The position numbers and the translations under genes are program-made. From positions 128-64,127 of the forward strand of contig JBDUBD010000001.1 of assembly GCA_040004295.1 (NCBI GenBank): a stretch of DNA of 64,000 nt, read 5' to 3'. How positions within the stretch are numbered: position 1 is the first letter of the stretch; every line of letters begins with the position of its first letter. This stretch comes from Sphingomonadales bacterium. GTDB lineage: Bacteria; Pseudomonadota; Alphaproteobacteria; Sphingomonadales; Sphingomonadaceae. Below the pieces are notes generated by a model, which saw only the letters and a program-made list of their open reading frames with translations, searched no databases and was not told the DNA's origin. Shown here piece after piece: positions 40,049 to 64,000 of this stretch.

Positions 40049-41112
40049 GCTTCTGCCTTCGCTGGAATGACCCCGCGGCGCATCTGGTCGAGTTCAAGGC
40101 TTTCGAACAATGCCTTGAAATTGCCCTCTCCGAAGCCGTCGTTGCCCTTGCGCTGGATGATCTCGAAGAAGATCGGACCGACCATATTCTCGGTGAAGAT
40201 CTGCAGCAGCAGCCCGCCCCCGGTCTCGGGCGCGCCATCTATTAGGACGCGGCGCTTGCGCATCTCCTCGACGTCGTGGCCATGGCCCGGAAGCCGCTTG
40301 TCGATCAGGTCGAAATAGGAATCATTGGTGTCCTGGAACCGGATGCCGTTCGCCCGCAGCGCATCGACTGTCTTGAAGATGTTGTCGGTTGCCAGCGCGA
40401 TGTGCTGGATACCCTCGCCCTTATATTCGCGCAGGAATTCCTCGATCTGCGAATGCTCGTCCTGGCTTTCGTTCAGCGGGATGCGGATCTTGTCGTCGGG
40501 CGCGGTCATCGCCTTCGAAAACAGACCGGTCGATTGCCCCTCGATGTCGAAATAGCGGATCTCGCGGAAGTTGAAGACGCGCTCGTAGAATCCGGCCCAG
40601 TGCGCCATGCGCCCGCGGTTCACGTTGTGGGTCAAGTGATCGAGCGTGTGCAGTCCGACGCTCTTGTCGTCCGCGACCGCGCCATCGACGGGCTCGAAGT
40701 CGATGTCGTAGATCGTTGCGGCACCGCGGCGGTCGACGAGGTACAGGTTTGATCCGCCGATCCCTTCGATAGCAGGGATATTGAGTTCCGCCGGGCCGAC
40801 GCGGCCCTCGACCGGCGCCGCGCCGCGCTCGACCGCGAGGTTCAACGCCTTTGCGGCGTCGGCAACGCGGAAAGCCATCGCATTCGCTGACGGCCCATGC
40901 GCGTCGCGAAAATCGGATACCTGGCCGACCGGCTCCATGTTCAGAATGAAATTGATGTCGCCCTGCCGATAATGACGAACGTTCTTCGACCGGTGGTTGC
41001 CGAGATGGGTGAAGCCCATCGCGCGGAACAGGTTTGCCAGCGCCTCCGGATCGGGACCGGTAAATTCGACAAATTCGAAGCCGTCGAGACCGATGGGGTT
41101 TTCTAAGGGCAT
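40045..41112 (-). CDS. hppD: 4-hydroxyphenylpyruvate dioxygenase
   Basis: GFEFVEF, DHLTHNV, GIQHIAL, LLQIFT, FFEIIQRKG..GFGEGNF. Confidence 0.97.
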   Translation of the reverse strand: MPLENPIGLDGFEFVEFTGPDPEALANLFRAMGFTHLGNHRSKNVRHYRQGDINFILNMEPVGQVSDFRDAHGPSANAMAFRVADAAKALNLAVERGAAPVEGRVGPAELNIPAIEGIGGSNLYLVDRRGAATIYDIDFEPVDGAVADDKSVGLHTLDHLTHNVNRGRMAHWAGFYERVFNFREIRYFDIEGQSTGLFSKAMTAPDDKIRIPLNESQDEHSQIEEFLREYKGEGIQHIALATDNIFKTVDALRANGIRFQDTNDSYFDLIDKRLPGHGHDVEEMRKRRVLIDGAPETGGGLLLQIFTENMVGPIFFEIIQRKGNDGFGEGNFKALFESLELDQMRRGVIPAKAEA

Positions 41113-47258: not shown

Positions 47259-49679
47259 TTAGCGGGTGCCGAAGGGAACCCGCAGCGTCGCACCATAGGT
47301 CGTGGGCGGTGCATAGATCGAGGTCACACCGAGAATGCCAAGATTGAGGGCATAGGCACGGTACGCCTTGTCGAAAACATTGCGCCCCCACACGGTCAGC
47401 GAGATGCCCGATGGCGTGTCGCGATAGGTGAGCGACGCGTTGGTGACGTTATAGGCTTTTTGCAGCGACCCCAGGCCGTTGGTTACTTCCAGGAATTGAT
47501 CGTCGTACCAGACGCCATCCACCTGCGCGGCCACATTTCCGTGCCCAACGTCAACATTGTAGCGCAGCAGATAGTTGAAGCTGAAGCGCGGAGCATTGGG
47601 CAACTCGACGCCCGTGATCGTCTTTTGCGGGAAGTCGCAGCGGAACACACCGCCCAGATTGGTGCAATACTGGGTGTTGGCAGCGCCGGGGACCAATTCC
47701 GGGCCAAACTGGACGTCGGTTGCCGGAATGCTGTCGACCGACGAGGTTTGCCATGTTGCCCCGAACACCGCATCGAAGCGCCGTGATGGCGACCAGAACG
47801 CTTCCAGTTCGGCACCGGTCGAATGGGCGTTGCTGTTGAAGACGTGGGGTACGCCGCCAGCCAGCGAGAAGGCCTGATAATCTTCATACGCGTAATGGTA
47901 CACAGTGCCGTTGAGGCGCAGCGTGCGATCCAGCAATGTCGTCTTGAACCCGGCCTCGAAACTGTTCAGCGTTTCGGGACGATGCTGGAAGTCGGCGGCG
48001 GCAATGTTCGACGACAGCGACCAATTGCCACCCTTGATGCCGCGATTCCACGATGCGAAGAGCAATGTTTGCGCGCTCGCCTGGAAATTGAGAGACACGC
48101 GTGCCGCCCAGTCGCCATAGGATATCTGGTTCGACCCCGGCACCACTGCAGCCAGATCCTTGTCGGTGAAAAGGACCTTGGGATTGGGCTGCGGTGCATA
48201 AGTGGGGTCGCTCAGGACATTGACGTAGTCGATAGACTTGTTGTCCTTGGAATAGCGGGCTCCCAGCGTCAGCGACAGCCGGTCGGTCAGCTTGATGTCG
48301 CCTTGTGCAAAGACCGACCAGTTCTTGGACGGAATTTTGTAGAACTGGGAAACCTGCGGCACCGAAAAGCCGCCGTTACCGGAAAGGGCCAAGTCGTAAA
48401 TCGGCGCGCCGGTCACGGCATGATCGCCATCGTATTTCATATCGAGGTAATAGGCCCCGATTTGCCACTTCAGGCGACTGGTGTCGCCGGACAGGCGCAG
48501 CTCTTGAGAAAACTGGTGAAATTTGAGCGTCGTATCGACATTGACGATCAGAAATGGGATCGCGTCGCCGTCTTCGGCATAAACCTTGTCCAGTGTAAGA
48601 TAATTGGTGATCGCGGTCAGGTTCGCACCGCCAAGCTTCCAGTTCAGTTCGGCCTGGTAACTGTTCGCCACCCGGTTCAGAGAGCCCTTGCGCTCGCCGA
48701 AATGGACCCATGGGGATGCCGGAAGGCCGGTCACTCCGTTGATCACACCATTCTGGGCGTCGCTCAGCCCGGCGGCATTGGTGTCGCAATAGCCATTGGG
48801 CAGGAAATTGCAGTTCTCGAAAACATAGCCACCAGTGGCAAGGTCGTTGTCTTCGGAATGCTTGTACCACAGGCTCACGGTCGCATCGGGTGACAGGTCG
48901 ATCTGTAAATTGACGCGAGCGGCCCAGCCATTCTTGCCGCCGAGATCCTGACCACTGCCGGGCAGGACGCCAAGACCGAGCGCGGTGGCATCTGTATCGC
49001 GCGACTTAATATAACCGTCGGCTTTCTCGAAACGGGTGGCCGCGCGTATGCGGACGCCCGGTGCCAGTTGTCCACCGACTGCACCCTCCAACGACCAGTC
49101 ATTGAAGCGACCGTAGTCGCCCTGGACATAGCCATTGAATTCGACCTTGCTGGCGTCCTCGCTGAGGTAATGGATCAGACCGCCGGTGGCGTTACGACCG
49201 AATAGCGTACCTTGAGGGCCGCGCAGGACTTCGACGCGCTTGATGTCGAACAACTGGCCCGACACGGCATTCATCGAGGCGATATAAGCATTGTCCTGAT
49301 ATACCGCGACCGGCGCTTCGAGATTGTCGGTGAAGTTGTTCTGCGAAATGCCGCGCAGGCTGAAGATCGTCAGGTTCGGTGACCAGGCATTGACCCGCAA
49401 GGCAGGGATTTGCTGAGTAATCTGCGTGGTATCGGTGATGCCCAGCCGATCGATCTGCTCGCCGGAAAAAGCGCTCATCGAAATCGGAACCTTCTGCAGG
49501 CTCTCGCTGCGCTTGTTGGCAGTGACCACGATTTCAGTGACCATGTTGCCGTCCGCTGACCCGCTTGCACCCGCATCGGCAGATGTAGTGCCCTGCGCCA
49601 CTGCCAGTGTTGGGAACGCCAGATACGAGCAGGCAAGCATGAGCGAGAGGCGTGATGTGGCGCGGAAGGTAAGATGCAT
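47259..49679 (-). CDS. TonB-dependent receptor
   Basis: Signal peptide, TonB box EIVVTA, EVLRGPQGTLFGRNATGG plug, NVFDKAY near the C-terminus; start ATG 49679. Confidence 0.95.
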   Translation of the reverse strand: MHLTFRATSRLSLMLACSYLAFPTLAVAQGTTSADAGASGSADGNMVTEIVVTANKRSESLQKVPISMSAFSGEQIDRLGITDTTQITQQIPALRVNAWSPNLTIFSLRGISQNNFTDNLEAPVAVYQDNAYIASMNAVSGQLFDIKRVEVLRGPQGTLFGRNATGGLIHYLSEDASKVEFNGYVQGDYGRFNDWSLEGAVGGQLAPGVRIRAATRFEKADGYIKSRDTDATALGLGVLPGSGQDLGGKNGWAARVNLQIDLSPDATVSLWYKHSEDNDLATGGYVFENCNFLPNGYCDTNAAGLSDAQNGVINGVTGLPASPWVHFGERKGSLNRVANSYQAELNWKLGGANLTAITNYLTLDKVYAEDGDAIPFLIVNVDTTLKFHQFSQELRLSGDTSRLKWQIGAYYLDMKYDGDHAVTGAPIYDLALSGNGGFSVPQVSQFYKIPSKNWSVFAQGDIKLTDRLSLTLGARYSKDNKSIDYVNVLSDPTYAPQPNPKVLFTDKDLAAVVPGSNQISYGDWAARVSLNFQASAQTLLFASWNRGIKGGNWSLSSNIAAADFQHRPETLNSFEAGFKTTLLDRTLRLNGTVYHYAYEDYQAFSLAGGVPHVFNSNAHSTGAELEAFWSPSRRFDAVFGATWQTSSVDSIPATDVQFGPELVPGAANTQYCTNLGGVFRCDFPQKTITGVELPNAPRFSFNYLLRYNVDVGHGNVAAQVDGVWYDDQFLEVTNGLGSLQKAYNVTNASLTYRDTPSGISLTVWGRNVFDKAYRAYALNLGILGVTSIYAPPTTYGATLRVPFGTR

Positions 49680-50049
49680 GCGTTTAGACTCCCTGTAGCG
49701 GTTCGGTTCTTTCGCTCGCTCTGTGGACGGCCCAAGGCGAAGCGTTCGACGGAGGTATTTCACAATTGACAGTAATAGGCAATATCGCTTCATTGTTGCA
49801 TGAATGAAACAGTAAAAGAGCGGGGATAATGGTGCTCTTCTTTTCCATCGTGGGTTCAAAATATTTTATTAAATAATTGATTTTAAATCACAAAATATCA
49901 GTCTCAATTTTCTTTGAGGTTCCTTAATGGGAACAATCCGAACAAAATTGCCGACATTGTCAATAAAAATATGTCATGATAGAAGTTGCAAAATCACGTC
50001 GCCGCTCAATGGCGATTCGGCGACCAAAGGGCCAACGAGGAGAGCAAAC
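49680..50049. promoter_or_regulatory. AT-rich divergent promoter region (TBDR / monooxygenase)
   Basis: Very AT-rich 49850-49980; palindromes TTCAT-N6-ATGAA (49789-49804) and GTTCC-N6-GGAAC. Confidence 0.55.
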
Positions 50050-51276
50050 ATGTTGCATGTGGCTGTATCGAACGACGGGAACGATCGCGCGAGCCGTGAT
50101 GGTGCTCCACCTAACGTCGCCACATTGGTCGCCCGCGCACAAGCGATGATCCCTGTCCTGCGGGAGCGCGAAGACGGAGCGATCCGCAGCCGCCAGGTGC
50201 CGATCGAAACAATAGTCGATTTTCAGCAAGCAGGCTTTTTCAAGATCCTGCAGCCGCGGCGCTTCGGCGGCTACGAAATGTCTCCAGCGGTCTATTGTGA
50301 GGTGGCCAAGACGTTGGCCGAGGGCTGCATGGGCAGCGCCTGGGTCTATGGTGTCGTTGCCGTCCACAACTGGCAAATGGCCCTGTTCGATCCGCAAGCT
50401 GCCGAAGATGTTTGGGGCGATGATCCTTCGGTATTGATCAGTTCTTCCTACATGCCGACCGGCAAAGCAGTCAAAGTCGATGGCGGCTATCGTTTTAGCG
50501 GCCGATGGGCGTTTTCCAGCGGATCCGAACACTGCCAATGGGTGATCCTGGGTGCCAACATGATTGCCGACGACGGCGACGGGCAGCCAGAGCCTTACAA
50601 CTTCCTGGTGCCTCGCAGTGACTATGCGATCTTGGATACCTGGCACACCATGGGACTGTGCCCCACCGGCAGCAATGACATCGTGGTGGACGATGTTTTC
50701 GTGCCGTCGTATCGCGTGATACGCGAGCGTGACATGTTCAATCTGGCGTGCCCAGGTCATGCTCTGAACACCGGCGAACTCTATCGCATTCCTTTTGCGC
50801 AACTGTTCAACCGGACGGTTTCGACGACGTCACTGGGTTCGCTCCGTCGTGCACTGGACACGTTCGTGGAATCAACCCGGCAAAAGCGGGCCACCTACAC
50901 CGGACTGCGGCTTGCAGGGGACACGACGATCCAGGAAGCCGTCGCCGATGTCATGTTGACGCTGCACGACCTCGAACTGCGCTTCGCCGCCGACCTGGCC
51001 GAACTGGACAGCCGCGCGGCAAGCGGCGATTGGCCGATCGAACGGCGTGCTGTGCTCGGGTACCACACCACTGCCGTTGTCTCTCGTTGCGTCGAGGCGA
51101 TCGACAAGCTGATGCTGTTTTCCGGCGGCAAGGCCATTTACCTTGGCAACGTCGTTCAGCGAGCGTTCCTTGATATCCACTGCGCACGCGGACACGTTGC
51201 CAACAATCCTTATCCCTATGCGCGTAACGTGGGCGGACTGGCCTTCGGGTTCGAAAACAACTGCATGGATCTTTGA
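50050..51276 (+). CDS. Group D flavin-dependent monooxygenase, oxygenase component (ACAD fold, HsaA-like)
   Basis: FFKILQPRRFGG, VHNWQMALF, ISSSYMP, GRWAFSSG..HC, TGSND, RAFLDIH. Confidence 0.88.
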   Translation: MLHVAVSNDGNDRASRDGAPPNVATLVARAQAMIPVLREREDGAIRSRQVPIETIVDFQQAGFFKILQPRRFGGYEMSPAVYCEVAKTLAEGCMGSAWVYGVVAVHNWQMALFDPQAAEDVWGDDPSVLISSSYMPTGKAVKVDGGYRFSGRWAFSSGSEHCQWVILGANMIADDGDGQPEPYNFLVPRSDYAILDTWHTMGLCPTGSNDIVVDDVFVPSYRVIRERDMFNLACPGHALNTGELYRIPFAQLFNRTVSTTSLGSLRRALDTFVESTRQKRATYTGLRLAGDTTIQEAVADVMLTLHDLELRFAADLAELDSRAASGDWPIERRAVLGYHTTAVVSRCVEAIDKLMLFSGGKAIYLGNVVQRAFLDIHCARGHVANNPYPYARNVGGLAFGFENNCMDL

Positions 51277-51348: not shown

Positions 51349-52293
51349 CTAGATGGCGGCTGCCAGCGCCTGTGATACGCCGTGCACAACTTCGGGCTTG
51401 GCGGCCATTTCGTTGCGAACGAAGTCCACGAAAGCCCGGACTTTCGACAAGGCAAAATTACCACGCGGGAAAATGATGTGCAGCGAAATACTTTCGCTGA
51501 CCACGTCATCAAGCAGGGATTCGAGCCGGTTGGCTGCAATATCTTCCTCGACCAGAAACCGGGGCAGGTAGCTGACCCCGAGCCCTTCGAGTGTGGCCTG
51601 CCGCGCCATCCGCACCGAGTTGCTGGTCAGCGGGCCTCGGTTCACCGCGACCGTGACATCGTCGGACAGGCGCCATTCGCCAACCTTCGACAGATGTGTT
51701 TCGACGATGCAGGTATGTTCTTTGAGGTCATTGGGTGTCGACGGCCAGCCAGCACGTCCGAGATAGTCCGGCGCGGCGACCAGCACCATGGGATAGGTAC
51801 GCAGTTGCACCGATTCCAGGCTGGCGTCGAACGGATCACCCATCCAGAAGGCCACGTCGAAGCGGCCCTTGAGCATGTCGACCTTGCTGTCCGAAAGATT
51901 AAGGAACATCCGTATATCGGGATAGGTCTTGAGGAACCGCGGAATGATCGCGGTAAGATCGAACAACGAAGACACGACGGGCGCATTCACCTTGAGTTCG
52001 CCGCGCGGTTTTGAAACCATCCCGGTGATAATCTGGTTTGCCTCGTTCACCTCATCGACGATGCGAGCGCAGCGTGCGTACATTTCGCGTCCGGCTGGCG
52101 TGAGCGAAACCGATCGCGTCGTCCGATCCAGCAGGCGCACCCCTATATTCTGTTCCAGCTTGGCGATCTGCCGGCTGACTGCAGCTTTTGAATAGCCGAG
52201 CACCTTGGCGGCATTCGAAAAGCCTCCGCTGCTGACGACGGCGGCGAATGACATCATCGCCATGACATTGCCCAAATCTGGTCGGTCTTCCAT
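51349..52293 (-). CDS. LysR-family regulator (CrgA/DmlR-like)
   Basis: FSNAAKVLGYSKAAVSRQIAKLE HTH, LLDRTTRSVSLT, KVRAFVDF. Confidence 0.93.
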   Translation of the reverse strand: MEDRPDLGNVMAMMSFAAVVSSGGFSNAAKVLGYSKAAVSRQIAKLEQNIGVRLLDRTTRSVSLTPAGREMYARCARIVDEVNEANQIITGMVSKPRGELKVNAPVVSSLFDLTAIIPRFLKTYPDIRMFLNLSDSKVDMLKGRFDVAFWMGDPFDASLESVQLRTYPMVLVAAPDYLGRAGWPSTPNDLKEHTCIVETHLSKVGEWRLSDDVTVAVNRGPLTSNSVRMARQATLEGLGVSYLPRFLVEEDIAANRLESLLDDVVSESISLHIIFPRGNFALSKVRAFVDFVRNEMAAKPEVVHGVSQALAAAI

Positions 52294-52439: not shown

Positions 52440-52505
52440 TTTGCGCAAGGACTTTGACGGTAATTTCAGGGCCGCTCTTCGAGCAGCGGCATGACCGGGA
52501 GAAAT

Positions 52506-53864
52506 ATGATGTCGAGCCAGCTTGCCCAGAAAGACGCGCGCAGCCAGTTCCACTCGTTCACGTCGCTCAACGACATGAAGGCGGACGGTCCCACTGTCAT
52601 GGCATCGGGGTCCGGGGTGCGTGTCCGCGATGTGAATGGCAAGGAATACATCGATGGGATGGCGGGCCTGTGGTGCGTCAACCTTGGTTATGGTCGTCAG
52701 GAAATTTCGGACGCGATCGCCCGGCAGAGCGAACGGCTGGCGTTCTTCCATACTTTCAACGGTATGAGCACCGATGTGGTGGCGGAATGCGCAGAAGCGT
52801 TGCTTGCCCGCGCACCCGTGCCGATGTCGCGGGTGTTTTTCGGCGTATCGGGAAGCGATGCCAATGAAACCCAGCTCAAGCTGATCTGGCTCTACAATAA
52901 CCTGCGCGGGATGCCGACCAAGAAGAAGGTGATCGCTCGCTGGAACGCCTACCATGGATCGGGCGTGGCCACGGCCAGCCTGACCGGATTGCCGGGCATG
53001 CATAACCTCTTCGACCTTCCCCAGGGTCCGATCCTGCATGTCAGCGCCCCGCACTATTATCGCAATGCGCCGGACGGCATGTCGGAGCGGGATTTCTCGC
53101 GCAAGCTTGCGAAGGAGCTGGAAGACCTGATCGAGCGCGAAGGCGGTGACACGATCGCTGCCTTTTTCGCCGAGGCTGTGATGGGGGCCGGTGGTCTGAT
53201 CCCGCCGCCAGAAGGCTATTTCGACGAGATCATGCCTATCCTCAAGAAGCACGACATTCTCCTCGTTGCAGACGAAGTCGTATCGGGGTTCGGTCGTCTC
53301 GGCACATATTGGGGATGCCAGAGCTATGGCTATCAGCCCGATCTCATCACGTCGGCCAAGGGCGTGACTTCGGGCTATTTCCCGATGTCGGCGGTTTTTA
53401 TTTCGCCCAAGGTTTGGGATGTGATCGAAAACGGTGCCGACAAGCTCGGCGTTTTTGGCCATGGTTACACCTATTCCGGCCATCCGGTCGGCGCGGCGGC
53501 TGCGCTTGTTGCGCTGAAGCTGATCGACGAGCTCAAGGTCGTCGAGAACGTTGCCGATGTGGGGCCGTACATGATGCAGGCACTGCGTGATCGGCTGGGA
53601 CAGCATCCGCATGTCGGCGACATCCGTGGCAAGGGCCTGATGCTGGGCATCGAGCTGATGAAGGATCGCGAGACCAAGGAGATTTTCCCGATGGCCAATC
53701 GCACCGGTCGCCAGGTGCTGAAGGCGGCGGCCGAACGGGGCCTGATCACGCGTGCGCTGGGCGATACGCTGGTCTTTGCGCCACCGCTTGTCATTACGCG
53801 TGCCGACGCAGACGAGATCGTGGACAAGTTTGCAGGGGCTGTGGACGACGTGTTCAAAGCCTGA
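52506..53864 (+). CDS. Class III PLP aminotransferase (omega-amine:pyruvate type)
   Basis: YIDGMAGLWCVNLGYG, SGSDANET, AYHG, ADEVVSGFGRLG, SAKG catalytic Lys; start ATG 52506 or 52491. Confidence 0.93.
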   Translation: MMSSQLAQKDARSQFHSFTSLNDMKADGPTVMASGSGVRVRDVNGKEYIDGMAGLWCVNLGYGRQEISDAIARQSERLAFFHTFNGMSTDVVAECAEALLARAPVPMSRVFFGVSGSDANETQLKLIWLYNNLRGMPTKKKVIARWNAYHGSGVATASLTGLPGMHNLFDLPQGPILHVSAPHYYRNAPDGMSERDFSRKLAKELEDLIEREGGDTIAAFFAEAVMGAGGLIPPPEGYFDEIMPILKKHDILLVADEVVSGFGRLGTYWGCQSYGYQPDLITSAKGVTSGYFPMSAVFISPKVWDVIENGADKLGVFGHGYTYSGHPVGAAAALVALKLIDELKVVENVADVGPYMMQALRDRLGQHPHVGDIRGKGLMLGIELMKDRETKEIFPMANRTGRQVLKAAAERGLITRALGDTLVFAPPLVITRADADEIVDKFAGAVDDVFKA

Positions 53865-55172: not shown

Positions 55173-55628
55173 TTAAGTGAGGCGCTTGGAATAACCGTCG
55201 AGCGTGGTGTTTCGCGACCAACCGCGCGTTTCATAGAGTTGCTGTGCCCTGTGGTTGGTCCGAGCTGTCTGCAGATTGATCCGGACAGCACCCCTTTCAG
55301 CAGCAAATGCTTCGGCCCGGTTCAGCAATACGGCACCGATGCCGCTGCCACGAATGGCGGGGAGTACAAACAGATCGTTCAATATGCAGATCGATCCTGC
55401 GAACACCGAACAGAAGCTGAAATAGATCTGGCAGAAGCCGACGATTCCGCCATCGGCGTCTTCGGCTACGAAGATTGCGGACTGACCCTTTTCCATTCGC
55501 TCCTGGATGAAATGCAACGCCAGCGGTTCGTCGGGCGCCATGTCGTAGAATTGCCGGTACAGATCGAATAAGCTCGCCACGGCCGGCACATCGGCGAGAG
55601 TTGCCTGGCGGATTTTAAAGGCATTCAT
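55173..55628 (-). CDS. GNAT N-acetyltransferase (SSAT-like)
   Basis: IRQATLAD, ILNDLFV, RGSGIG acetyl-CoA motif; start ATG 55628. Confidence 0.88.
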   Translation of the reverse strand: MNAFKIRQATLADVPAVASLFDLYRQFYDMAPDEPLALHFIQERMEKGQSAIFVAEDADGGIVGFCQIYFSFCSVFAGSICILNDLFVLPAIRGSGIGAVLLNRAEAFAAERGAVRINLQTARTNHRAQQLYETRGWSRNTTLDGYSKRLT

Positions 55629-55679
55629 CAAAAATGTCTCCTGATCTGCGGCCCCGCCGCGAGGCGGCGGGCGCATCGA

Positions 55680-56483
55680 TCAAAGGAAGACCGCGCGGGA
55701 CAGGCCACCGTCGACGGCGATTGATTCCCCGGTGATTCCGCTGCCGAGTTGCGAGCACAGGAACACGATCGGGTCGGCCACTTCCTGGACCTCGAGCATA
55801 CGTTTCAGCGCGGCTGGATCACCGGCTTCACGGGCGACGATGGCGTCCACCGTGGTACCTTCTTCAGCGGCCATCTCGGCAAACCATTCCTCGATATGTT
55901 CCGTCCTGGTGACGCCGGGATGGATGATGTTGACGGTGATGCCGTCGCGGCCGACTTCGTCCGACAATGTCTTGGTGAAGTGAACCAATGCGGTATTGCG
56001 CATGCCCGAAAGCGCTTCGGTGCAGCGCGCTGTCAACCCGCCAACATTGACGATTCGACCCCAGCCGGCCTTGCGCATGTGCGGCACACACGCCTTGGCG
56101 GTACGAAAATAGCCGAACAGCTTGGTGTTGAGATCGAGCATCAGCGCATCTTCGTCGGCCTGTTCGATGGCGTTACGAACTAGCCCTCCGGGAGCGGCCG
56201 CACAATTGACCAGGATATGGATAGCTCCGAACCTGGCCACAGTCGCATCGATCAGCGCCTGGACCGACTCCTTGGAGGTCGTGTCGGTCGGCACGGCAAT
56301 GATGTCGCCACCCGTCTCTGTGCGCAGTTCCTCTGCGGCGGCTTCAAGCTTGCTGACCGTACGGGCAGCGATTGCCACTTTGGCACCAGCCATCAGCAGC
56401 TTGCGGGCGGTTTCCTTGCCGATCCCGACGCCGCCGCCGGTAATCACGGCGACCTTGCCCTCAAGTCCCAGTTCCAGATGCAT
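55680..56483 (-). CDS. Atypical SDR lacking the Ser/Tyr/Lys catalytic residues
   Basis: TGGGVGIG Rossmann motif, GITVNIIHPG, TGESIAVDGG; the YxxxK position reads SGMRN. Confidence 0.85.
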   Translation of the reverse strand: MHLELGLEGKVAVITGGGVGIGKETARKLLMAGAKVAIAARTVSKLEAAAEELRTETGGDIIAVPTDTTSKESVQALIDATVARFGAIHILVNCAAAPGGLVRNAIEQADEDALMLDLNTKLFGYFRTAKACVPHMRKAGWGRIVNVGGLTARCTEALSGMRNTALVHFTKTLSDEVGRDGITVNIIHPGVTRTEHIEEWFAEMAAEEGTTVDAIVAREAGDPAALKRMLEVQEVADPIVFLCSQLGSGITGESIAVDGGLSRAVFL

Positions 56484-56497
56484 TGTCTTTTCTCCTT

Positions 56498-57271
56498 CTA
56501 ATTTGATGAACGCAGCGAGACGCGCGCCGCTTCGGCACCGTCAAAATCCACCCGGATCACATCGCCCGAAAATATCTCGGTAGCCCCGGTGCAGGTTCCC
56601 GAAGCGATGAGTTGTTCGCGCTTGAGACTACCCTGTTCGTTATCGCGCAGCCAGTTTGCGAGCCAGACCAGGGCATCGAGCGGATCGTGCATGACGCGTT
56701 TTGTGGATCCTTCGACCGGAGCCTCCGCGTTGCGCGTGAGGGTGGCTGACATGGCGGCGAAACGCTCGTCCCATATGGACGCTAGTTTGCGACCGAGGAC
56801 CAGTCCGTGGCCCATCACATTGTCTGCGATCAGCAGTGGAAGGGGAAGGTCGCTTTCCACAAAGCGGCTACGGACGATCTCTATGCCGGCATAGACGCCC
56901 TTGATCGCGCCGCAGAGGTCTTCGCGGGTATATGGTTCTGGCTGTAACGGCAGATCCTGGCCCATTTCAAAGACGATTTCTGCTTCAGCGTACATTTCTG
57001 GTTGGCAGAAAGCGATTTCGCTGCGGTCGGCGTAGATCGCGCTTGCGGCTAGTCGGCCGACGACCGGCTCGCTTGCGCTGAATGCATCGCGTGCACTCTG
57101 GCTGGTGAGCCCCAGCTTCCACACCATAACCGGCAGCGCGCTGCGTGCCGCTATCCGGCGTTGAATTGCGTATGCCACGTCAATTGTCGGCTGCAGTTCC
57201 GGCAGCGGTATGCCGACGCCAGGTTCTGCCGCGAGCAACGCGTGTTGCAAGTCGCTATCGATGTTCCGCAC
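56498..57271 (-). CDS. 2-keto-4-pentenoate hydratase-like (FAH superfamily, MhpD-like)
   Basis: WKLGLTS, EAEIVF, GIEI, IADN, DPLDALVWLAN, IASGT; GTG start at 57271. Confidence 0.85.
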   Translation of the reverse strand: MRNIDSDLQHALLAAEPGVGIPLPELQPTIDVAYAIQRRIAARSALPVMVWKLGLTSQSARDAFSASEPVVGRLAASAIYADRSEIAFCQPEMYAEAEIVFEMGQDLPLQPEPYTREDLCGAIKGVYAGIEIVRSRFVESDLPLPLLIADNVMGHGLVLGRKLASIWDERFAAMSATLTRNAEAPVEGSTKRVMHDPLDALVWLANWLRDNEQGSLKREQLIASGTCTGATEIFSGDVIRVDFDGAEAARVSLRSSN

Positions 57272-57446
57272 CGGATCCTCCTGCGGCCACCAGCGACCGG
57301 TCAATTGTCCCGAATATGCAACAACGCAACTTTGAAATCTAGTATTGTTTACATTTAGTGATTGAGTTAGTTGTCGTCTGGATTCGCCGCAAGGGTCATC
57401 CGTGCCGTGTGGGCGAATTTGGATTCCGCAGGTTGAAAGTAGTGCC

Positions 57447-58955
57447 ATGACCGATAAGTCCGCAACATTTGCTCAGGCCGAAGCGCTGGGTGCCGCCATG
57501 GCGAAACGCCCTTTGGGGCTGATCATCGATGGCAAGTCGGTGCCGGCGCAGTCGGGTAAAACATTTGCCACGCTCAACCCGGCGACTGGCAAGGAAATCT
57601 GTCAGGTGGCGGAGGGCGGCGTTGCCGATGTCGATCTGGCGGTCAAGGCGGCCCGCAAGGCTTTGATCGATCCTTCCTGGCGCGACATGAGCGCGGTTGA
57701 TCGGTCGAAGCTACTCAACCGCCTGGCCGATCTCATCGAGCGGGATGCCGCAGAGTTGGCCGTGCTGGAATGCATGGACAACGGCAAGCCGGCGACGCTC
57801 ACAATGGGGGTCGAGATCGAAGGGTCGATCAAGACCTTTCGCTATTTTGCTGGCTGGCCGACCAAATTCGGTGGGGAAACACTGCCGGTTTCACCGCGCA
57901 GCGGGGCCAAGATTCTCAATTACACCGTGCGCGAGCCAGTCGGCGTTTGCGGGTTGATCGTGCCGTGGAACTACCCCATGTCGATGGCGGCGTGGAAGGT
58001 GGCTCCGGCGTTGGCCGCAGGCTGCACCGTTATCCTGAAACCCGCCGAGCAAACCCCGCTGACCGCGTTGCGTCTGGCCGAACTTGCGCTTGAAGCGGGC
58101 GTGCCGCCGGGCGTTTTCAACGTCATCACCGGTTTTGGCGAAGCGGGCGCGGCTCTGGTCGATCACCCCGGTGTCGACAAGGTCGCCTTCACTGGTTCGA
58201 CGGAAGTTGGCAAAGCGATTGTACGGGGTTCGACCGGGAACCTGAAAAAGGTGAGTCTGGAACTGGGTGGGAAGTCGCCGCAGATCGTTCTGCCGGATGC
58301 CGATCTCGATGCTGCCGCAGCTTCGATCGCTTCAGGCATTTTCTTCAATCAAGGACAGACATGCACCGCGGGCTCGCGATTGTATGCCCATGCTTCAATC
58401 CATGACGATCTGCTCAGTCGTATCGCCGATCATGCTGCACGCCTGACCATTGGCAACGGCCTCGACCCCACGGTCAATTTCGGTCCGCTGGTGTCACAGG
58501 AGCAATGGGACCGCGTAAATTCCTACGTCGAAATCGGCAAAGCCGAAGGTGCCGAGGTGATGATTGGTGGCAGCCGACCCAAGGGACTCGGGGAGGGCTT
58601 CTTTTTCGAGCCGACAATCATGGCCAACGCCGGACGTGACATGCGTATCGTGCGCGAAGAAATATTTGGTCCGGTGTTGAGTGCGCTTAGCTGGAGTGAT
58701 CCGGCCGATCTGGTCGCCCAGGCCAATGATTCCGATTTTGGCCTCTCGGCCGGAATCTGGACCAACGATCTGAGGCAGGCACACCGACTGGCCAGCGCGG
58801 TCAAGGCGGGCACGGTGTGGATCAACTGCTTTAACCTTGTCGACAATGCGACGCCGTTCGGCGGCTTCAAACAGTCGGGTTGGGGCCGCGAGCATGGTCG
58901 TCAGGCCATGGAACTCTACAGCGAAATCAAGAGTATATGGGTTAATTTGAGCTGA
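57447..58955 (+). CDS. NAD-dependent aldehyde dehydrogenase (arylacetaldehyde-DH-like)
   Basis: PWNYP, FTGSTEVG, LELGGKSP (Glu), FNQGQTCTAG (Cys), EEIFGPV, PFGGFKQSG. Confidence 0.96.
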   Translation: MTDKSATFAQAEALGAAMAKRPLGLIIDGKSVPAQSGKTFATLNPATGKEICQVAEGGVADVDLAVKAARKALIDPSWRDMSAVDRSKLLNRLADLIERDAAELAVLECMDNGKPATLTMGVEIEGSIKTFRYFAGWPTKFGGETLPVSPRSGAKILNYTVREPVGVCGLIVPWNYPMSMAAWKVAPALAAGCTVILKPAEQTPLTALRLAELALEAGVPPGVFNVITGFGEAGAALVDHPGVDKVAFTGSTEVGKAIVRGSTGNLKKVSLELGGKSPQIVLPDADLDAAAASIASGIFFNQGQTCTAGSRLYAHASIHDDLLSRIADHAARLTIGNGLDPTVNFGPLVSQEQWDRVNSYVEIGKAEGAEVMIGGSRPKGLGEGFFFEPTIMANAGRDMRIVREEIFGPVLSALSWSDPADLVAQANDSDFGLSAGIWTNDLRQAHRLASAVKAGTVWINCFNLVDNATPFGGFKQSGWGREHGRQAMELYSEIKSIWVNLS

Positions 58956-58993: not shown

Positions 58994-60028
58994 ATGAGCA
59001 AGACCTTGATAGTCGCGACCGATGGGCAAGCCGTGATGCGGACCCACGATGACGGCAAGAGCTGGTATCGGATCAATATTCAGCAGGATCTGGAATATGA
59101 CGATCGCGTCCGGTGTTTGCTCGTTGATCCTGCCAACCCCGAAGCGTTATTTGCCGGTGCAGAAAAGGGGCTGTTCTACAGTGCCGACCAAGGCGTGCAC
59201 TGGAGCCGGGTCGACTGCGCGCTGAACGGATTTGCGGTATGGAAGCTGGTGGCGAGCGAAAGCGATCCCAAGGTGCTTTATGCCGGGACAGGCGCTCCGT
59301 CGCTCTCGATCCTGTTCCGTTCGCGCGATGGTGGCAAGGTCTGGGAGCGGTCCACGCTCGAGATGCCTGAATTCTGCGCCGGGGTAAACCGCCCGCGGAT
59401 GCTGGCGCTGGCTGTCGATCCGGACGATGCGAACGACGTGTGGGCGGGGATCGAGGAAGGCGGCCTGCACCGCAGCCGCGACGGCGGCAATAACTGGGAA
59501 CGGATCGACACCACATGGTCCGAGTTCGGCGGAAATTCCGACCTGCACGACATCATGGTCCTCAAGCAGGATGATGGATCGAAGGTTCACCTCGCGCTGA
59601 CCGTCATCGCGCTTTATCGATCGACGGACGACGGCAAGACCTGGACGCGCTTGCCCGCCAAGGAAAGCTGGGGCTTGCGGTATTCGCGACTGCTCATGCG
59701 CAAGCCGGGCAGCGGTCGGGAGATTGCTGTCGGCATCGGTGACGGTACTCCCGGAACACAGGCTGCGATCCTGACCTCGTCCGATGCGGGTCTGACCTGG
59801 GCCAAGGCTGATCTCGATACCCCGTCGAACTCGTGCATGTGGGCTTTCGGTACGAACCCTGCCGATCCCGATTTCCAGCTTGCGGCCAGCAAATTCGGGT
59901 ATCTCTATCGCTCGACCAATGGCGGTAAGTCGTGGATCAAGGAATGGCGCGAGTTTAACGAGATCACCGATCTCGCCTGGGTGCCGGGTGTGCCGACCGA
60001 CTTGGGATTGCCGCATGTCACGAACTGA
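58994..60028 (+). CDS. Cytoplasmic Asp-box (BNR) beta-propeller protein, function unknown
   Basis: Seven SxDxGxxW repeats; no signal peptide. Confidence 0.8.
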   Translation: MSKTLIVATDGQAVMRTHDDGKSWYRINIQQDLEYDDRVRCLLVDPANPEALFAGAEKGLFYSADQGVHWSRVDCALNGFAVWKLVASESDPKVLYAGTGAPSLSILFRSRDGGKVWERSTLEMPEFCAGVNRPRMLALAVDPDDANDVWAGIEEGGLHRSRDGGNNWERIDTTWSEFGGNSDLHDIMVLKQDDGSKVHLALTVIALYRSTDDGKTWTRLPAKESWGLRYSRLLMRKPGSGREIAVGIGDGTPGTQAAILTSSDAGLTWAKADLDTPSNSCMWAFGTNPADPDFQLAASKFGYLYRSTNGGKSWIKEWREFNEITDLAWVPGVPTDLGLPHVTN

Positions 60029-60500
60029 GAAATCGCCGATCCACGTCAGCAAGATCGCCCATGTCGTTCTGTTCGTCAGGGATCCGGAGGCTTCGGCGAA
60101 GTGGTACGAGGACGTGCTCAATATGACGATTGTCACCCGTGCGGCCGATGGGCCGTACAAGGGGGGCGTCTTCCTGAGTTTCGGGGTCAGCGATCACGAC
60201 ATTGCCTTGTTTCCGGGCGATCCCGGCGCAAGCAGGGGCAAGGAGTTCGAGCACATCGGATTGATCATGGCTGGAACGAGCATGGACGATCTGCGCCGCA
60301 ATCACGCCTTTTTCACCGAGCGCGGTGTGGAGATTGCCGAGATCCTCAACCACGGGGTGTCTACCGGCATCTACTTCTACGATCCGGACGGTCATATGCT
60401 GGAGGTTTTCTGCCAGCACATTCCCCAGAACGGAGCCTCGCAAGTCGAATTGCGGCGCAACGAGGGGCAGGCCGACCCGGTCGACCCGATCTCGCTTTAA
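60015..60500 (+). CDS. Single-domain VOC protein, probable extradiol dioxygenase
   Basis: H16, H61, H80, H113, Y120, E130 follow the order and spacing of the type I extradiol catalytic domain. Confidence 0.75.
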   Translation: MSRTEKSPIHVSKIAHVVLFVRDPEASAKWYEDVLNMTIVTRAADGPYKGGVFLSFGVSDHDIALFPGDPGASRGKEFEHIGLIMAGTSMDDLRRNHAFFTERGVEIAEILNHGVSTGIYFYDPDGHMLEVFCQHIPQNGASQVELRRNEGQADPVDPISL

Positions 60501-60578
60501 ATTTCACGCAATGGCCGGGGCAGGGTGCCTGCGGCCAGCGCCCCAGGCGAAACGCCGAGGCCGATTAGGGAGAATAGC

Positions 60579-61184
60579 ATGACGACCTACGCACCGAACT
60601 TCGGTCCATTCCACATCCGCAAATGGTTCAGTCAGGTCGAGGAGATCTGGGCCGGCGAAACCGGTGTCGCCGCTGATGGTGCTCCGCTGATCAAGTATAT
60701 GATCGCGGCTTGCATCAAGAATCCCTATTCCGGCGAGTTCATCGAAGATCTGTCGGCTTGGATCGATGCTTCGCCCGCGCTGGGAACGGAAATCGGCCGA
60801 CGGCTCAACGCGCTTTCGGGCGGGGCCAGGATCGAAAGCTATGGCAAGGCCATCATGGTCGGGATCGATGGAGAATACGAACATGGCAATGCCCTGCTGA
60901 CCAATCCAGCCGCCAATCCCGTGCGTGACGCGATAGGCGGCGGTGCCTCTTGGGTTCCCTCAACCGGAAAGCGCGGCGTTCCCGGCACGATCCTCGACAT
61001 CCCTTTCGGTCACAAGGACGCGCTGTACGTTCGCTCGCACTACGACACGATGAGCGTCTCGTTCGGCGACGCGCCCAATCGTGACGAAGTGATCGTGTGC
61101 TGGGCCTTTGCCACGCGCGGTCGCCTCAATGCGCGCCTGGGCGGCCTGAAAGCCGAAGACGCCGTAGGCAATGGCCTGACCTGA
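60579..61184 (+). CDS. DUF1185 (PF06684 'amino acid synthesis' family) protein
   Basis: IKNPYSG, IESYGKAIMVGIDGEYEHG, IPFGHKDA..RSHYD, DAP..DE, GRLNARLGG. Confidence 0.85.
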   Translation: MTTYAPNFGPFHIRKWFSQVEEIWAGETGVAADGAPLIKYMIAACIKNPYSGEFIEDLSAWIDASPALGTEIGRRLNALSGGARIESYGKAIMVGIDGEYEHGNALLTNPAANPVRDAIGGGASWVPSTGKRGVPGTILDIPFGHKDALYVRSHYDTMSVSFGDAPNRDEVIVCWAFATRGRLNARLGGLKAEDAVGNGLT

Positions 61185-61187
61185 ACG

Positions 61188-62111
61188 ATGGCCGATCAAC
61201 GCCTCGCCCATTCGGACGCGCCGCCGCTTCCTGTCCGGCTTCTCGACGGGGAGCGGACACAGCGGATCGCTAACGGTAACCTGGGCATTCAGGTGCGCGA
61301 GTGGGGAAAACCTGACGCACCCGCCATGGTCCTGCTGCACGGTCTGCGCGGCTATTCCGGTACTTGGCGCAATTTTGCCGCTGCGTTTTCGGATCGGTGG
61401 CACATGATCGCGCTGGATGCGCGCGGGCGGGGTGACAGCGACTGGGACGTCGATCGCAACTATTACACCGATGCTTATCTGAGAGATCTGGAGGCGGTGG
61501 TCGATGGACTGGCCCTCGATCGCTTTGTGTTGGTCGGGCATTCGATGGGCGGAACGACATCCTATTGCTACGCCGCTAAGCACCCGCAGCGTCTGAATGC
61601 TCTGATTGTGGAAGACATCACGGCCGGATCTTCTGTTGCGGGTGCGGGTTTCGAGCGGATAGTGGCGGAAATGGCCGCACTGCCGACGCGCTTCGACAAC
61701 TGGGCCGGGGCGCGTGCCTATTGGCGCAAGCTGCGACCGGGCGTTTCCCATGCAGCAATCGAGGAACGCCTATTTGAATCGATGTGTGCTGGCGATGGCG
61801 ACACTGTGGTCTGGCGTTACGACGCTGAGGGGATCGCCGCGACCCGCATTGCACCGGATCCGTCTCGCCTGGTGGATCTGCACCCGGTCATTGGTGCGAT
61901 ACGCACGCCGACTCTGATCATCCGTGGCGGACGTTCCGACTTCTGCAACCTGACCAAGGTGGAGGAACTGGAAGCCGCCAATGCGATGCTGTCGCATGCC
62001 AGCGTGGCGGACGCTTCGCACTACGTCCACGATGACGCGCCGGAAAGTTACCTGCGTCTGGTGGAAGGCTTCCTGGCCGGACTCAAAGTCGGCCGGGTCG
62101 CGCCGAATTGA
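61188..62111 (+). CDS. Alpha/beta-fold hydrolase
   Basis: LLHG oxyanion segment, DARGRGDS, GHSMG nucleophile elbow, SHYVH catalytic His. Confidence 0.9.
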   Translation: MADQRLAHSDAPPLPVRLLDGERTQRIANGNLGIQVREWGKPDAPAMVLLHGLRGYSGTWRNFAAAFSDRWHMIALDARGRGDSDWDVDRNYYTDAYLRDLEAVVDGLALDRFVLVGHSMGGTTSYCYAAKHPQRLNALIVEDITAGSSVAGAGFERIVAEMAALPTRFDNWAGARAYWRKLRPGVSHAAIEERLFESMCAGDGDTVVWRYDAEGIAATRIAPDPSRLVDLHPVIGAIRTPTLIIRGGRSDFCNLTKVEELEAANAMLSHASVADASHYVHDDAPESYLRLVEGFLAGLKVGRVAPN

Positions 62112-62125
62112 CAGGATGACGATCA

Positions 62126-63727
62126 ATGACTGACCAGACCATCGTTCAGGGTGCCGTCACGACGCGGCTCGGCGCGGACCTGCTGCTCGACAGCCTGTAT
62201 CGTGGTGGCGCACGGATATGCTTTGCCAATCCGGGGACGACCGAGTTGGGGCTGGTGAGCGCGTTGGCGCGGGACGGGCGCATTCGCTGCGTCCTCAGCC
62301 TGTTTGAAGGTGTCTGCACCGGCGCAGCAGATGGATATGCGCGCGTTTCCGGTCATGTCCCGCTGACATTGCTGCATCTTGGTCCCGGCTTTGCCAACGG
62401 GATTGCCAACCTGCACAACGCCCGCCGTGCGGGGTCGCGGATCATCAACTTGATTGGCGACCATGCCACCTGGCATTTGCCTTACGATGCGCCGCTGACT
62501 TCTGACATCTATTCTTTGGCTAGTCCGGTTTCGCGTGATGTTATCTACCTCGAAAGCGTCGCCGCGATTTCCGGCGGCGTGCGGCGGGCGTTTGCCGCGA
62601 CCAACCTAGCCGAGGGTGGGGCGGCCACGATCATTTTTCCTACCGATGCGGTCGATGCGCCTACACCGATAGATACCGCGCCCATCGTCGAAGTGCCATA
62701 TTTGCCGACGCCCGTTGCCGAGGCGACGATCGAGGCCGCTGCTGCGACTTTGTCGGAAGGTGGCGATACGATTGTCCTGCTCGGCGGCAATGCCCTGACT
62801 GAAGGTGGTATTCGTGCCGGTGCCCAACTGGCGGAGAAACTTGGCGGGCGGCTGCTGATGGAGCCGTATCCTGCGATCGTGACGCTGGGCGGCGACCTGC
62901 CCGCAGTCGAACGACAAGCCTATTTTCCTGACGACGTGATCGCACAGATGGGTGAAGCGCGCGTGGTGTTGGCCGGCGCACGAATGCCGATCAGCTATTT
63001 CGGCTACGAGGGTTGGCCCAGCCAGCTCGTTCCCGACAGCCGTCTGGTGCGCCTCGCAGAACCGGGAGAGGACGCTGTGGGCGCACTCAAGGCGCTGCTG
63101 ACATGGATCGGCGCCGCCGCCGGCCAAACCGTTGTTGCTACCTCGGCCGCAGCGACACCGGCGTCTGCGGACGCCTCGCCGGTCGCTCTGTCGCCAGCAT
63201 CGGTTGTCGAAGAGCTTCTGGCGCAATTGCCGCAGGATTCGATCATCTCGCTCGAGGGCTCGACCCTTGGAGGGCCATGGCTCCGCAATGCCTATCGGGC
63301 ACGCCGCCACCGGGTCATGACCAACACGGGCGGCGCCATCGGGCAGGGGCTGCCTTGCGCGGTCGGCGCTGCCCTCGCCGAGCCGGGTGCGCAGGTGATT
63401 TCGTTACAGTCCGACGGCAGTGCCCAATACACGCTGCAATCGCTGTGGACCATGGCGCGCGAGAAGCTCAAGGTCACTGTGATCATAGCCGCCAACCATC
63501 GCTATGCCATCCTCCAGACAGAGCTGAACCGGGCTGCCGCTCCTCTTGAGGACAGCGTGATTGCCAGCCTGACCAAGCTCGACAAACCGCGGGTGGACTG
63601 GGTCGCGCTGGCCACCGGCTATGGCGTGGAAGCCGTGCGGGCGTCCACCAACGCCGAGCTGGCCGCAGCATTGCAACGGGGCCTGGCGCTCGAAGGCCCG
63701 TTGCTGATCCAGGCAGAGCTGCCGTGA
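62126..63727 (+). CDS. ThDP-dependent enzyme ('acetolactate synthase large subunit'-like decarboxylase/lyase family)
   Basis: CFANPGTTE, LFEGVCTGAADGYAR, LHLGPG, variant ThDP motif SDGS...NHRYAIL. Confidence 0.88.
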   Translation: MTDQTIVQGAVTTRLGADLLLDSLYRGGARICFANPGTTELGLVSALARDGRIRCVLSLFEGVCTGAADGYARVSGHVPLTLLHLGPGFANGIANLHNARRAGSRIINLIGDHATWHLPYDAPLTSDIYSLASPVSRDVIYLESVAAISGGVRRAFAATNLAEGGAATIIFPTDAVDAPTPIDTAPIVEVPYLPTPVAEATIEAAAATLSEGGDTIVLLGGNALTEGGIRAGAQLAEKLGGRLLMEPYPAIVTLGGDLPAVERQAYFPDDVIAQMGEARVVLAGARMPISYFGYEGWPSQLVPDSRLVRLAEPGEDAVGALKALLTWIGAAAGQTVVATSAAATPASADASPVALSPASVVEELLAQLPQDSIISLEGSTLGGPWLRNAYRARRHRVMTNTGGAIGQGLPCAVGAALAEPGAQVISLQSDGSAQYTLQSLWTMAREKLKVTVIIAANHRYAILQTELNRAAAPLEDSVIASLTKLDKPRVDWVALATGYGVEAVRASTNAELAAALQRGLALEGPLLIQAELP

Positions 63728-64000
63728 GTGAGGCATCGCGCGTTGCTATCCTGACCGGCGGCAGTGGCGGAATTGTTCCCGGCATTGCCGAAGAACTGGC
63801 TCGGGCGGGTTTCGCGATCGTGCTCACCGCGCGTGGCATCGATGCGCTTCGGGCCGCAGCCGACCGGATAGGCGCCAACACCGGCATCGCGATTGCTGCC
63901 TTTGCGTCCGATGCCCGCGACGTAGCTTCGTCGAAGGCGCTTGTCGCGCAGGTACTGGACAGGTTTGGTCGGGTCGACGTCCTTGTGAATGCCGCTGCAA
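63724..64000 (+). CDS. SDR-family oxidoreductase, 5' partial
   Basis: VAILTGGSGGIVPGIA, LDRFGRVDVLVNAA; GTG overlaps the ThDP-enzyme stop; runs off the window. Confidence 0.85.
   Translation, partial: MSEASRVAILTGGSGGIVPGIAEELARAGFAIVLTARGIDALRAAADRIGANTGIAIAAFASDARDVASSKALVAQVLDRFGRVDVLVNAAA

Follow-up and report, generated by a model that had tools for sequence, protein, structure and literature searches.

A predicted cytoplasmic Asp-box propeller is translationally coupled to a one-domain extradiol-type dioxygenase in a meta-cleavage-type gene island of Proteobacteria

What can an Asp-box β-propeller, a fold usually met in secreted glycosidases and sorting receptors, be doing in the middle of a catabolic operon? 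This question is raised by a 64,000-nucleotide stretch of DNA from a Sphingomonadales bacterium (GenBank assembly GCA_040004295.1, contig JBDUBD010000001.1, positions 128 to 64,127 of the forward strand), which was analysed as a whole and is referred to here as the window. Near its end, a gene for a seven-bladed Asp-box propeller is followed by genes for a small VOC-family protein and a DUF1185 protein. The original prediction, made from the letters of the window, had described the three genes as a coupled trio and had proposed that the propeller and the DUF1185 protein act on an unstable ring-cleavage product, or that the propeller is a partner of the dioxygenase. Our analysis indicates that the propeller is probably no glycosidase but participates in ring cleavage, either as a new enzyme or as a partner protein, and that it forms a fixed genetic unit with the VOC protein, while the DUF1185 protein belongs to a second unit.

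Inspection of the open reading frame identified position 58994, which is preceded by an upstream stop, as the earliest possible start codon of the propeller gene; its TGA stop codon occupies positions 60026-60028. The Asp-box pattern [ST]x[DN]xGxx[WFY] is matched at residues 17, 63, 110, 161, 210, 262 and 307, i.e. seven times, compared with 0.05 expected matches and a maximum of two in 2000 shuffled sequences. Pfam matches were obtained for Sortilin-Vps10 (74 bits), PSII_BNR (54 bits) and BNR. A pattern scan of the propeller revealed no FRIP motif and no RIP ahead of the first Asp-box. The single R[ILV]P match, RLP at residue 219, lies right behind Asp-box 5 and is not conserved. Neither a signal peptide nor a hydrophobic stretch was found in the protein (highest Kyte-Doolittle mean 0.73 in a 19-residue window), and the N-terminus does not represent a cleaved signal because residues 3-10 belong to the fold. 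Pattern scan, reading frame and hydropathy therefore bear out the earlier description of seven Asp-boxes without signal peptide or RIP motif, and a cytoplasmic location of the protein is supported by its sequence. A sequence search yielded 1402 homologues of about the same length (~344 aa), deposited under names such as "glycosyl hydrolase", "YCF48-related" or "WD40/YVTN/BNR-like". The family is strongly conserved, with a mean column identity of 67-73%.

Propeller and VOC genes form a fixed, translationally coupled two-gene module. In a scan with one genome per species, 65 loci were returned, 64 of which reach far enough downstream to be inspected for the VOC gene. They stem from Sphingomonadales, Azospirillaceae, Phenylobacterium, Steroidobacteraceae and Burkholderiales, and thus from three proteobacterial classes. 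The VOC gene resides directly behind the propeller gene on the same strand in every one of the 64 loci. In 55 of them the stop codon of the first gene overlaps the start of the second, and this overlap amounts to 14 nt in 43 cases, just as had been noted for the window, where the VOC ATG at 60015 precedes the propeller stop. In Burkholderiales, a gap of 3-14 nt separates the two genes. The same pairing is present in Acinetobacter and Pseudomonas protegens. Here, at a propeller identity of 45-48%, all catalytic residues of the VOC protein are kept and the genes follow the order thiamine diphosphate (ThDP) enzyme, aldehyde dehydrogenase, short-chain dehydrogenase/reductase (SDR), propeller, VOC, DUF1185, hydrolase, FAD hydroxylase and FAH-fold protein. 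The propeller-VOC order is retained even where all other genes of the island are rearranged. No second VOC-like reading frame besides the adjacent one was detected in the 64 main-family loci (~1.3 Mb), and the plus-strand intergenic gaps between 57447 and 63727 contain no promoter- or terminator-like sites.

The VOC protein is classified, on the basis of its sequence, as a one-domain type-I extradiol-type dioxygenase. It matches the Glyoxalase family PF00903 with 79 bits. In 30 orthologues, residues H16, H61-D62, H80, H113, Y120 and E130 do not vary, and when a profile built from these is aligned with catechol 2,3-dioxygenase XylE (1mpy), it falls on the C-terminal domain, such that H16, H61, H80, H113, Y120 and E130 correspond to XylE H153, H199, H214, H246, Y255 and E265. 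In XylE, these positions serve as the iron triad and as catalytic residues of the second shell. The 2-His-1-carboxylate metal triad is therefore predicted to consist of H16, H80 and E130 (XylE H153, H214 and E265), while the second shell is represented by H61, H113 and Y120 (XylE H199, H246 and Y255), which are also kept in the VOC proteins of Pseudomonas, Acinetobacter and Burkholderiales. It is because all six catalytic residues of XylE are present that we assign the protein to the type-I extradiol enzymes, in agreement with the original designation as a mini extradiol dioxygenase. An AlphaFold2 model (pLDDT 86) retrieved mostly two-domain extradiol dioxygenases in Foldseek searches, with ~125-145 aligned columns. 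With its one VOC domain, the protein resembles the class I.1 extradiol enzymes, of which BphC2 and BphC3 of Rhodococcus globerulus are one-domain members. We know of no extradiol dioxygenase that has been described with an adjoining propeller gene. The score of the protein is far under the cut-off of every substrate-specific NCBIfam model (e.g. 51 versus 320 bits for TIGR03211), and a substrate can therefore not be transferred.

Both the best whole-chain structural match and the best solved sequence relative of the VOC protein is 9u42, a 169-residue VOC protein whose entry is titled homogentisate 1,2-dioxygenase. The possibility that the Acinetobacter island VOC protein is itself the crystallised 9u42 protein was ruled out, as there was no match at E ≤ 1e-5. 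The window contains a gene for 4-hydroxyphenylpyruvate dioxygenase (40045-41112, minus strand), and no HgmA_C match, indicative of a canonical homogentisate 1,2-dioxygenase, was found in the 97%-complete genome. Homogentisate would need a different ring-cleaving enzyme in this organism, or it would serve pigment formation. Canonical HmgA is present in 22 of 40 island-bearing genomes. There is therefore no clean complementarity, and a replacement of homogentisate dioxygenase by the VOC protein, though conceivable, is not supported by the distribution of the genes.

The AlphaFold2 model of the propeller (pLDDT 93, pTM 0.92) comprises ~28 strands, which we read as seven blades of four. In this assignment, strand 3-10 and the C-terminal strand 324-331 together would form the closing blade. 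Invariant residues are unevenly distributed in character over the loops of the model. On the bottom face, which carries the Asp-boxes, 15 of the 18 invariant residues belong to the Asp-box consensus. Another 32 invariant residues are located in the D-to-A and B-to-C loops, all on one face. They include every polar invariant residue outside strands and Asp-boxes, namely Q12, E34, D36, C128, R133, R135, E154 and E155 as well as D172, D183, D250, T252, N279, S280, K300 and E323. Furthermore, H185, Y230 and R232 are invariant and located at the beginning of inner strands. Mapped via strand topology, these residues are predicted to build a charged and polar patch that surrounds the opening of the central channel and faces away from the Asp-boxes.

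Further insight came from a distant clade of propellers that are 39% identical to the window protein and originate from soil metagenomes, one member being source-named Methylomirabilota. A core of the presumed pocket is kept in this clade, i.e. Q12, D36, R135, E154, D183, H185, Y230, R232, D250, T252, N279, R319, E320 and E323. Of 83 loci, 27 have at least 2.5 kb on both flanks. The propeller gene lies directly upstream of a gene for an ABC-transporter binding protein in about 20 of the 83 loci, another 20 or so show the order propeller-Amidohydro_2-VOC or propeller-VOC, and eight have another fixed arrangement with the VOC gene 1.2 kb downstream. A VOC gene is present within 2.5 kb in 11 of the 27 fully flanked loci; in the distant-clade VOC proteins, a Gln takes the place of the second metal-binding His (seen in L070 and L119). 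Two loci (L069:6001-9365 and L119:4001-6696) contain one or two Amidohydro_2 genes behind the propeller gene and a small VOC gene as well; the Amidohydro_2 family includes decarboxylases, hydratases and lactonases of ring products. The propeller-VOC association thus recurs outside the island, and the original prediction, which had left room for a propeller that lacks such company elsewhere, stands in this respect. As members of the distant clade often lack a VOC neighbour and nonetheless keep the pocket, the latter is more than a site at which the VOC protein docks. This independence from VOC speaks for a small-molecule function of the propeller itself.

Among solved structures, Foldseek placed 3b7f (Reut_B4987) first, followed by single GH74 domains, Ycf48, DAIP and sortilin. 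3b7f, a structural-genomics entry titled "putative glycosyl hydrolase with BNR repeats", is likewise a single-domain propeller and superposes well (TM 0.76/0.72, E = 2e-18), although it shares just 20% identity with the window protein. It is uncharacterised, so that no function can be transferred from it. Ycf48/HCF136 (2xbg, 5oj3, 5ojp) also consists of a single seven-bladed Asp-box propeller of ~330 aa, PSII_BNR is matched above its cut-off and TM values lie between 0.5 and 0.6. In oxygenic phototrophs, Ycf48 binds D1 and is a lipoprotein of the lumen. The window propeller, in contrast, has no signal peptide and is encoded in a catabolic operon of heterotrophic Proteobacteria; it shares 14-19% identity with the Ycf48 proteins and reaches 55 bits with NF010237, the equivalog cut-off of which is 326. 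With this score and without lipoprotein or lumenal targeting, an identity as Ycf48 was rejected.

The DUF1185 gene comes after the VOC gene in the window, as originally stated, and starts with an ATG at 60579, 78 nt past the VOC stop. Its highly conserved product covers positions 1-175 of the 175 profile positions of PF06684 with 208 bits (gathering threshold 27) and shares the family with the structurally characterised proteins BB2672/SPO0826 (3byq, 2qtp; E = 9e-38 to 2qtp). It adjoins the gene for an α/β-hydrolase in 60 of 60 loci and the VOC gene in 45 of 62, while in the remaining 17 it lies apart from the propeller-VOC pair, either as much as 7.9 kb away or encoded on the opposite strand. 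In Azospirillaceae, a block of genes for ThDP enzyme, transaminase, hydrolase and DUF1185 protein is located upstream on the opposite strand. In Steroidobacteraceae, an insert of 1.1-3.6 kb separates the VOC gene from the DUF1185 gene; in locus L043 this insert comprises a LysR gene, a gene for a kinase of the APH family and one for a further protein similar to class-III aminotransferases (the latter two at L043:11544-13834). We take the kinase and aminotransferase-like genes together to resemble the amino-alcohol kinase/phospho-lyase pairs, and such a pair would hint at an amino-alcohol substrate. Given that the DUF1185 gene is tied to the hydrolase gene and less so to the pair, the presumed coupled trio has to be resolved into two modules.

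The closest solved relative of the hydrolase, with 75 bits, is 3kxp, the α-(N-acetylaminomethylene)succinate (AAMS) hydrolase of the vitamin B6 pathway, which forms succinic semialdehyde. Matches to the PDB entries of MhpC, HsaD and BphD (44-48 bits) cover the N-terminal third only, and the scores are below the C-C hydrolase equivalog cut-offs (HsaD 56 versus 400 bits, BphD 38 versus 462 bits). A hydrolase near 3kxp combined with a DUF1185 protein and an aldehyde dehydrogenase similar to succinic semialdehyde dehydrogenase (SSADH) resembles the lower trigonelline pathway (TgnD/E/F), in which TgnD is an α/β-hydrolase related to AAMS hydrolase. Our literature search yielded no publication on the propeller family or on the island; it returned just a structure paper on DUF1185 and remarks on HcdD and TgnF. 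The original statement that DUF1185 has no established reaction holds insofar as no member of the family has one, but the family is not wholly unstudied: TgnF is reported to stimulate the oxidation of succinic semialdehyde by TgnE (PMC7913881). The DUF1185 operons studied here also contain, in relatives of the window, a gene for an SSADH-like aldehyde dehydrogenase, a feature shared with TgnF. As is the case for HcdD, the DUF1185 gene stands beside a set of genes for a hydroxylase, an extradiol dioxygenase and a hydrolase. In contrast, the constant neighbour in our loci is the hydrolase, whereas the effect reported for TgnF is a stimulation of the aldehyde dehydrogenase. Because of this reported stimulation, we consider it most likely, by analogy, that the DUF1185 protein works together with the hydrolase and an aldehyde dehydrogenase, in a module apart from propeller and VOC. 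It would probably help to deliver or process what the hydrolase forms (succinic semialdehyde or another aldehyde) so that the dehydrogenase can use it, in line with the report on TgnF.

Table 1. Genes of the island in the window, with strand and basis of assignment
Positions	Strand	Predicted product	Basis or remark
49927-51276	+	Two-component flavin monooxygenase, oxygenase subunit (HsaA/C2-HpaH-like phenol ortho-hydroxylase)	NCBIfam, PDB
51349-52293	-	LysR regulator	Divergent from aminotransferase
52491-53864	+	Class-III (omega) aminotransferase	Best PDB match 5kr6, 516 bits
53930-55111	+	MFS transporter	Pfam, neighbourhood scan
55173-55676	-	GNAT acetyltransferase	Between MFS transporter and SDR; outside the conserved island
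55680-56483	-	SDR oxidoreductase	Present in 64 loci
56498-57448	-	FAH-fold hydratase/decarboxylase-like protein (MhpD/HpaH type)	TIGR03220 80 bits, HpaH 68 bits, both below cut-off
57447-58955	+	Aldehyde dehydrogenase, immediately 5' of propeller	PF00171, 596 bits
58994-60028	+	Asp-box β-propeller, seven-bladed, predicted cytoplasmic, 344 aa	Open reading frame, Pfam, AlphaFold2 model
60015-60500	+	VOC protein, one-domain type-I extradiol-type dioxygenase, 161 aa	PF00903, XylE alignment
60579-61184	+	PF06684 protein (AA_synth/DUF1185), 201 aa	PF06684; heads DUF1185-hydrolase module
61188-62111	+	α/β-Fold hydrolase, 307 aa	Abhydrolase_1
62126-63727	+	ThDP enzyme, PRK07586 type, 533 aa	Benzoylformate decarboxylase closest solved relative
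63724-64000	+	Second SDR, truncated by window end	Contig ends 234 nt beyond

The genes surrounding the two modules (Table 1) agree with the earlier view that the propeller is part of a cytoplasmic catabolic operon. As judged from sequence similarity, the island encodes the components of a meta-cleavage route by which a substituted phenol would be degraded: a phenol ortho-hydroxylase, the one-domain extradiol dioxygenase, the α/β-hydrolase, an MhpD/HpaH-like hydratase and, in relatives, an SSADH-like aldehyde dehydrogenase. An omega-transaminase, an SDR, a benzoylformate decarboxylase-like ThDP enzyme and aldehyde dehydrogenases are available for the processing of a side chain. The hydroxylase scores below the cut-offs of NF045629 (HsaA, 350 bits) and NF045920 (228 bits) and matches 2rfq and 2jbr with 269 and 185 bits, respectively. 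This HsaA/C2-HpaH-like type is found in the alpha- and gammaproteobacterial versions of the island, and an MhpA-like FAD hydroxylase takes its place in Burkholderiales, Acinetobacter and Pseudomonas. The aminotransferase, whose closest solved relative 5kr6 is a pyruvate-dependent 4-aminobutyrate transaminase, is likewise conserved in the alpha and gamma versions. For the aldehyde dehydrogenase, which adjoins the propeller in 55 of 63 loci, the best NCBIfam model is that of phenylacetaldehyde dehydrogenase StyD (622 bits, cut-off 850). The ThDP enzyme aligns with benzoylformate decarboxylase over the full length with ~124 bits. The true start of the FAH-fold gene is probably located more downstream than that of the reading frame listed; orthologous reading frames cluster in 55 loci. 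The operon is cut in the genome studied here because the contig stops shortly past the window. In locus L001 it goes on with an SDR, a cytochrome b561-like membrane protein and an SSADH-like aldehyde dehydrogenase (the last two at L001:15506-17521). Across the relatives, the regulator is of the LysR or IclR type and the transporter belongs to the MFS or APC family. The GNAT gene occurs in just two of the 65 related loci (L015 and L032) and thus lies outside the conserved island. A gene for a TonB-dependent receptor (47259-49859, minus strand) is located just upstream of the hydroxylase gene, and comparable receptors, with an identity of only 24-30%, are encoded near the island in several sphingomonad loci.

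The island shares a phenol hydroxylase (HsaA- or MhpA-like), an extradiol dioxygenase, an α/β-hydrolase and an MhpD-like hydratase with operons of the mhp, hsa and bph type. Unlike these, it has no aldolase or acylating dehydrogenase, adds a ThDP enzyme, two SDRs, an omega-transaminase, the propeller and the DUF1185 protein, and contains a hydrolase that resembles AAMS hydrolase more closely than it does MhpC or HsaD. In summary, the pieces come from known superfamilies, namely Asp-box propellers, VOC extradiol dioxygenases and PF06684, and the island is of the meta-cleavage type with two unexplained conserved components. Four pathway lines each fit part of the gene set: conversion of an arylethylamine via an arylacetate to homoprotocatechuate or homogentisate, side-chain shortening of the hydroxymandelate type, a route like that of 3-hydroxyphenylpropionate, and degradation of an N-heterocycle in a pyridoxine- or trigonelline-like manner.

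In principle, the position and conservation of the propeller can be explained by several fundamentally different functions. We tentatively favour, at somewhat less than an even chance, the view that it is a new enzyme for small molecules whose substrate is the ring-fission product. For catalysis it would use a pocket lined by invariant Arg, Asp, Glu, His and Tyr residues where the central channel opens, on the side facing away from the Asp-boxes. By acid-base chemistry or with the help of a metal, such an enzyme would take the carboxylated ring-fission product newly released by the dioxygenase, isomerise, cyclo-isomerise or hydrate it, or form or open a lactone, and channel the unstable intermediate to the following enzymes. 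A number of points weigh against this proposal. To our knowledge, no single-domain seven-bladed Asp-box propeller is an enzyme, and the characterised ones among the Foldseek neighbours, Ycf48 and DAIP, are binding proteins. Blades and faces were assigned from strand order without measured distances, the hydrolase is only weakly similar to characterised enzymes (at most 75 bits), and the gene content is compatible with several different schemes and singles out none of the four pathway lines. HcdD is induced by 7-hydroxycoumarin and was without stimulating effect in vitro (PMC7913881). Absolute adjacency and stop/start overlap, finally, fit an obligate heteromer equally well. The propeller could then be a non-catalytic partner in a stoichiometric complex with the one-domain dioxygenase, acting as a scaffold in place of the missing N-terminal domain, as a Ycf48-like stabiliser or assembly factor, or as a substrate-delivery subunit. 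We regard this strongest alternative as somewhat unlikely, even though it is favoured by the binding function of the characterised single-domain Asp-box propellers, by a gene arrangement that promotes equimolar synthesis and by a dioxygenase that lacks the second domain present in the two-domain extradiol enzymes of the PDB match lists. The distant clade keeps the polar pocket and yet frequently has transporter or Amidohydro_2 genes and no VOC gene at its side, and a conserved surface that, in the model, is charged and polar around the channel mouth is more typical of a ligand site. No propeller-VOC fusion was found among the best 150 matches from 1.8 billion representative proteins, but this list was swamped by giant multi-propeller Asp-box proteins and held only about six single-domain relatives, so that little weight attaches to it.

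Conservation of the pocket independently of VOC would also suit an enzyme of the same pathway with another substrate, for example a lactonase, hydrolase or lyase for the growth substrate or a side-chain intermediate, in which case adjacency to the VOC gene would reflect operon history. Several steps of the island lack an assigned enzyme, and lactonases and a muconate cycloisomerase are known among six- and seven-bladed propellers that have no Asp-boxes. Nevertheless, we judge this explanation unlikely, as the propeller-VOC order survives rearrangement of every other island gene and VOC genes are enriched again beside the distant clade. Very improbable, in our view, is a glycoside hydrolase of the sialidase or GH74 type that is unrelated to the surrounding catabolic genes. 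Apart from database names such as "glycosyl hydrolase", it is the likeness to GH74 xyloglucanases (OXG-RCBH, 1sqj/2ebs; Xgh74A, 2cn3) that points in this direction: one GH74 domain superposes with a TM of ~0.6, and a 93-bit profile match takes in an acidic residue of the B-C loop, E57 (D in other clades), which aligns with the first catalytic-loop Asp in the TDIGG loop of OXG-RCBH. GH74 enzymes are secreted and consist of two tandem propellers, each contributing one catalytic Asp, with the substrate cleft between them. The window protein, in contrast, is a single propeller of 344 aa, compared with ~700-790 residues for GH74 chains, and has no second domain, export signal or carbohydrate context; not a single carbohydrate gene was found in any of the 64 islands. 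As the GH74 chains are about twice as long, no characterised glycosidase homologue with its catalytic apparatus is at hand, and an identity as xyloglucanase was rejected. Identity to any glycosidase is at most 20% and carried by the Asp-boxes, as are the best solved sequence matches of the propeller, which are GH74 domains and sialidases with 34-43 bits. NF045728 (F510_1955 family glycosylhydrolase) is matched with 101.7 bits in four partial stretches (cut-off 175) and BNR_2 with 25.8 bits (cut-off 31.4). A GH33 sialidase was rejected as well: Asp-boxes are present, as in many non-sialidases, and RIP motif, BNR_2 score and the export signal typical of bacterial sialidases all fail. The earlier observation that the propeller shows no sialidase RIP motif is confirmed, and the protein is not recognisable as a GH74 enzyme either.

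Names such as glycosyl hydrolase, sialidase or photosystem assembly factor are routinely given to Asp-box propellers, and for well over 1000 predicted cytoplasmic proteins such an annotation is wrong. Their family is now tied to aromatic ring cleavage. If the propeller handles an unstable ring-fission product, as we tentatively propose, meta-cleavage enzymology would gain a new fold. If it is a subunit instead, the complex would be the first hetero-oligomeric VOC-type extradiol dioxygenase, as we know of none so far. The island is present in the genetically tractable Pseudomonas protegens and Acinetobacter, and the functions of propeller, DUF1185 protein and the whole pathway are thus directly testable. 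A further-reaching possibility, which we consider doubtful for the time being, is that the propeller founds a new enzyme class as the first catalytic cytoplasmic single-domain Asp-box propeller with a substrate other than a carbohydrate. Repeatedly recruited beside ring-processing enzymes of the VOC and Amidohydro_2 types, it would isomerise or cyclo-isomerise the products of aromatic ring fission, and the island would represent an undescribed, widespread route for a phenolic amine or acid.

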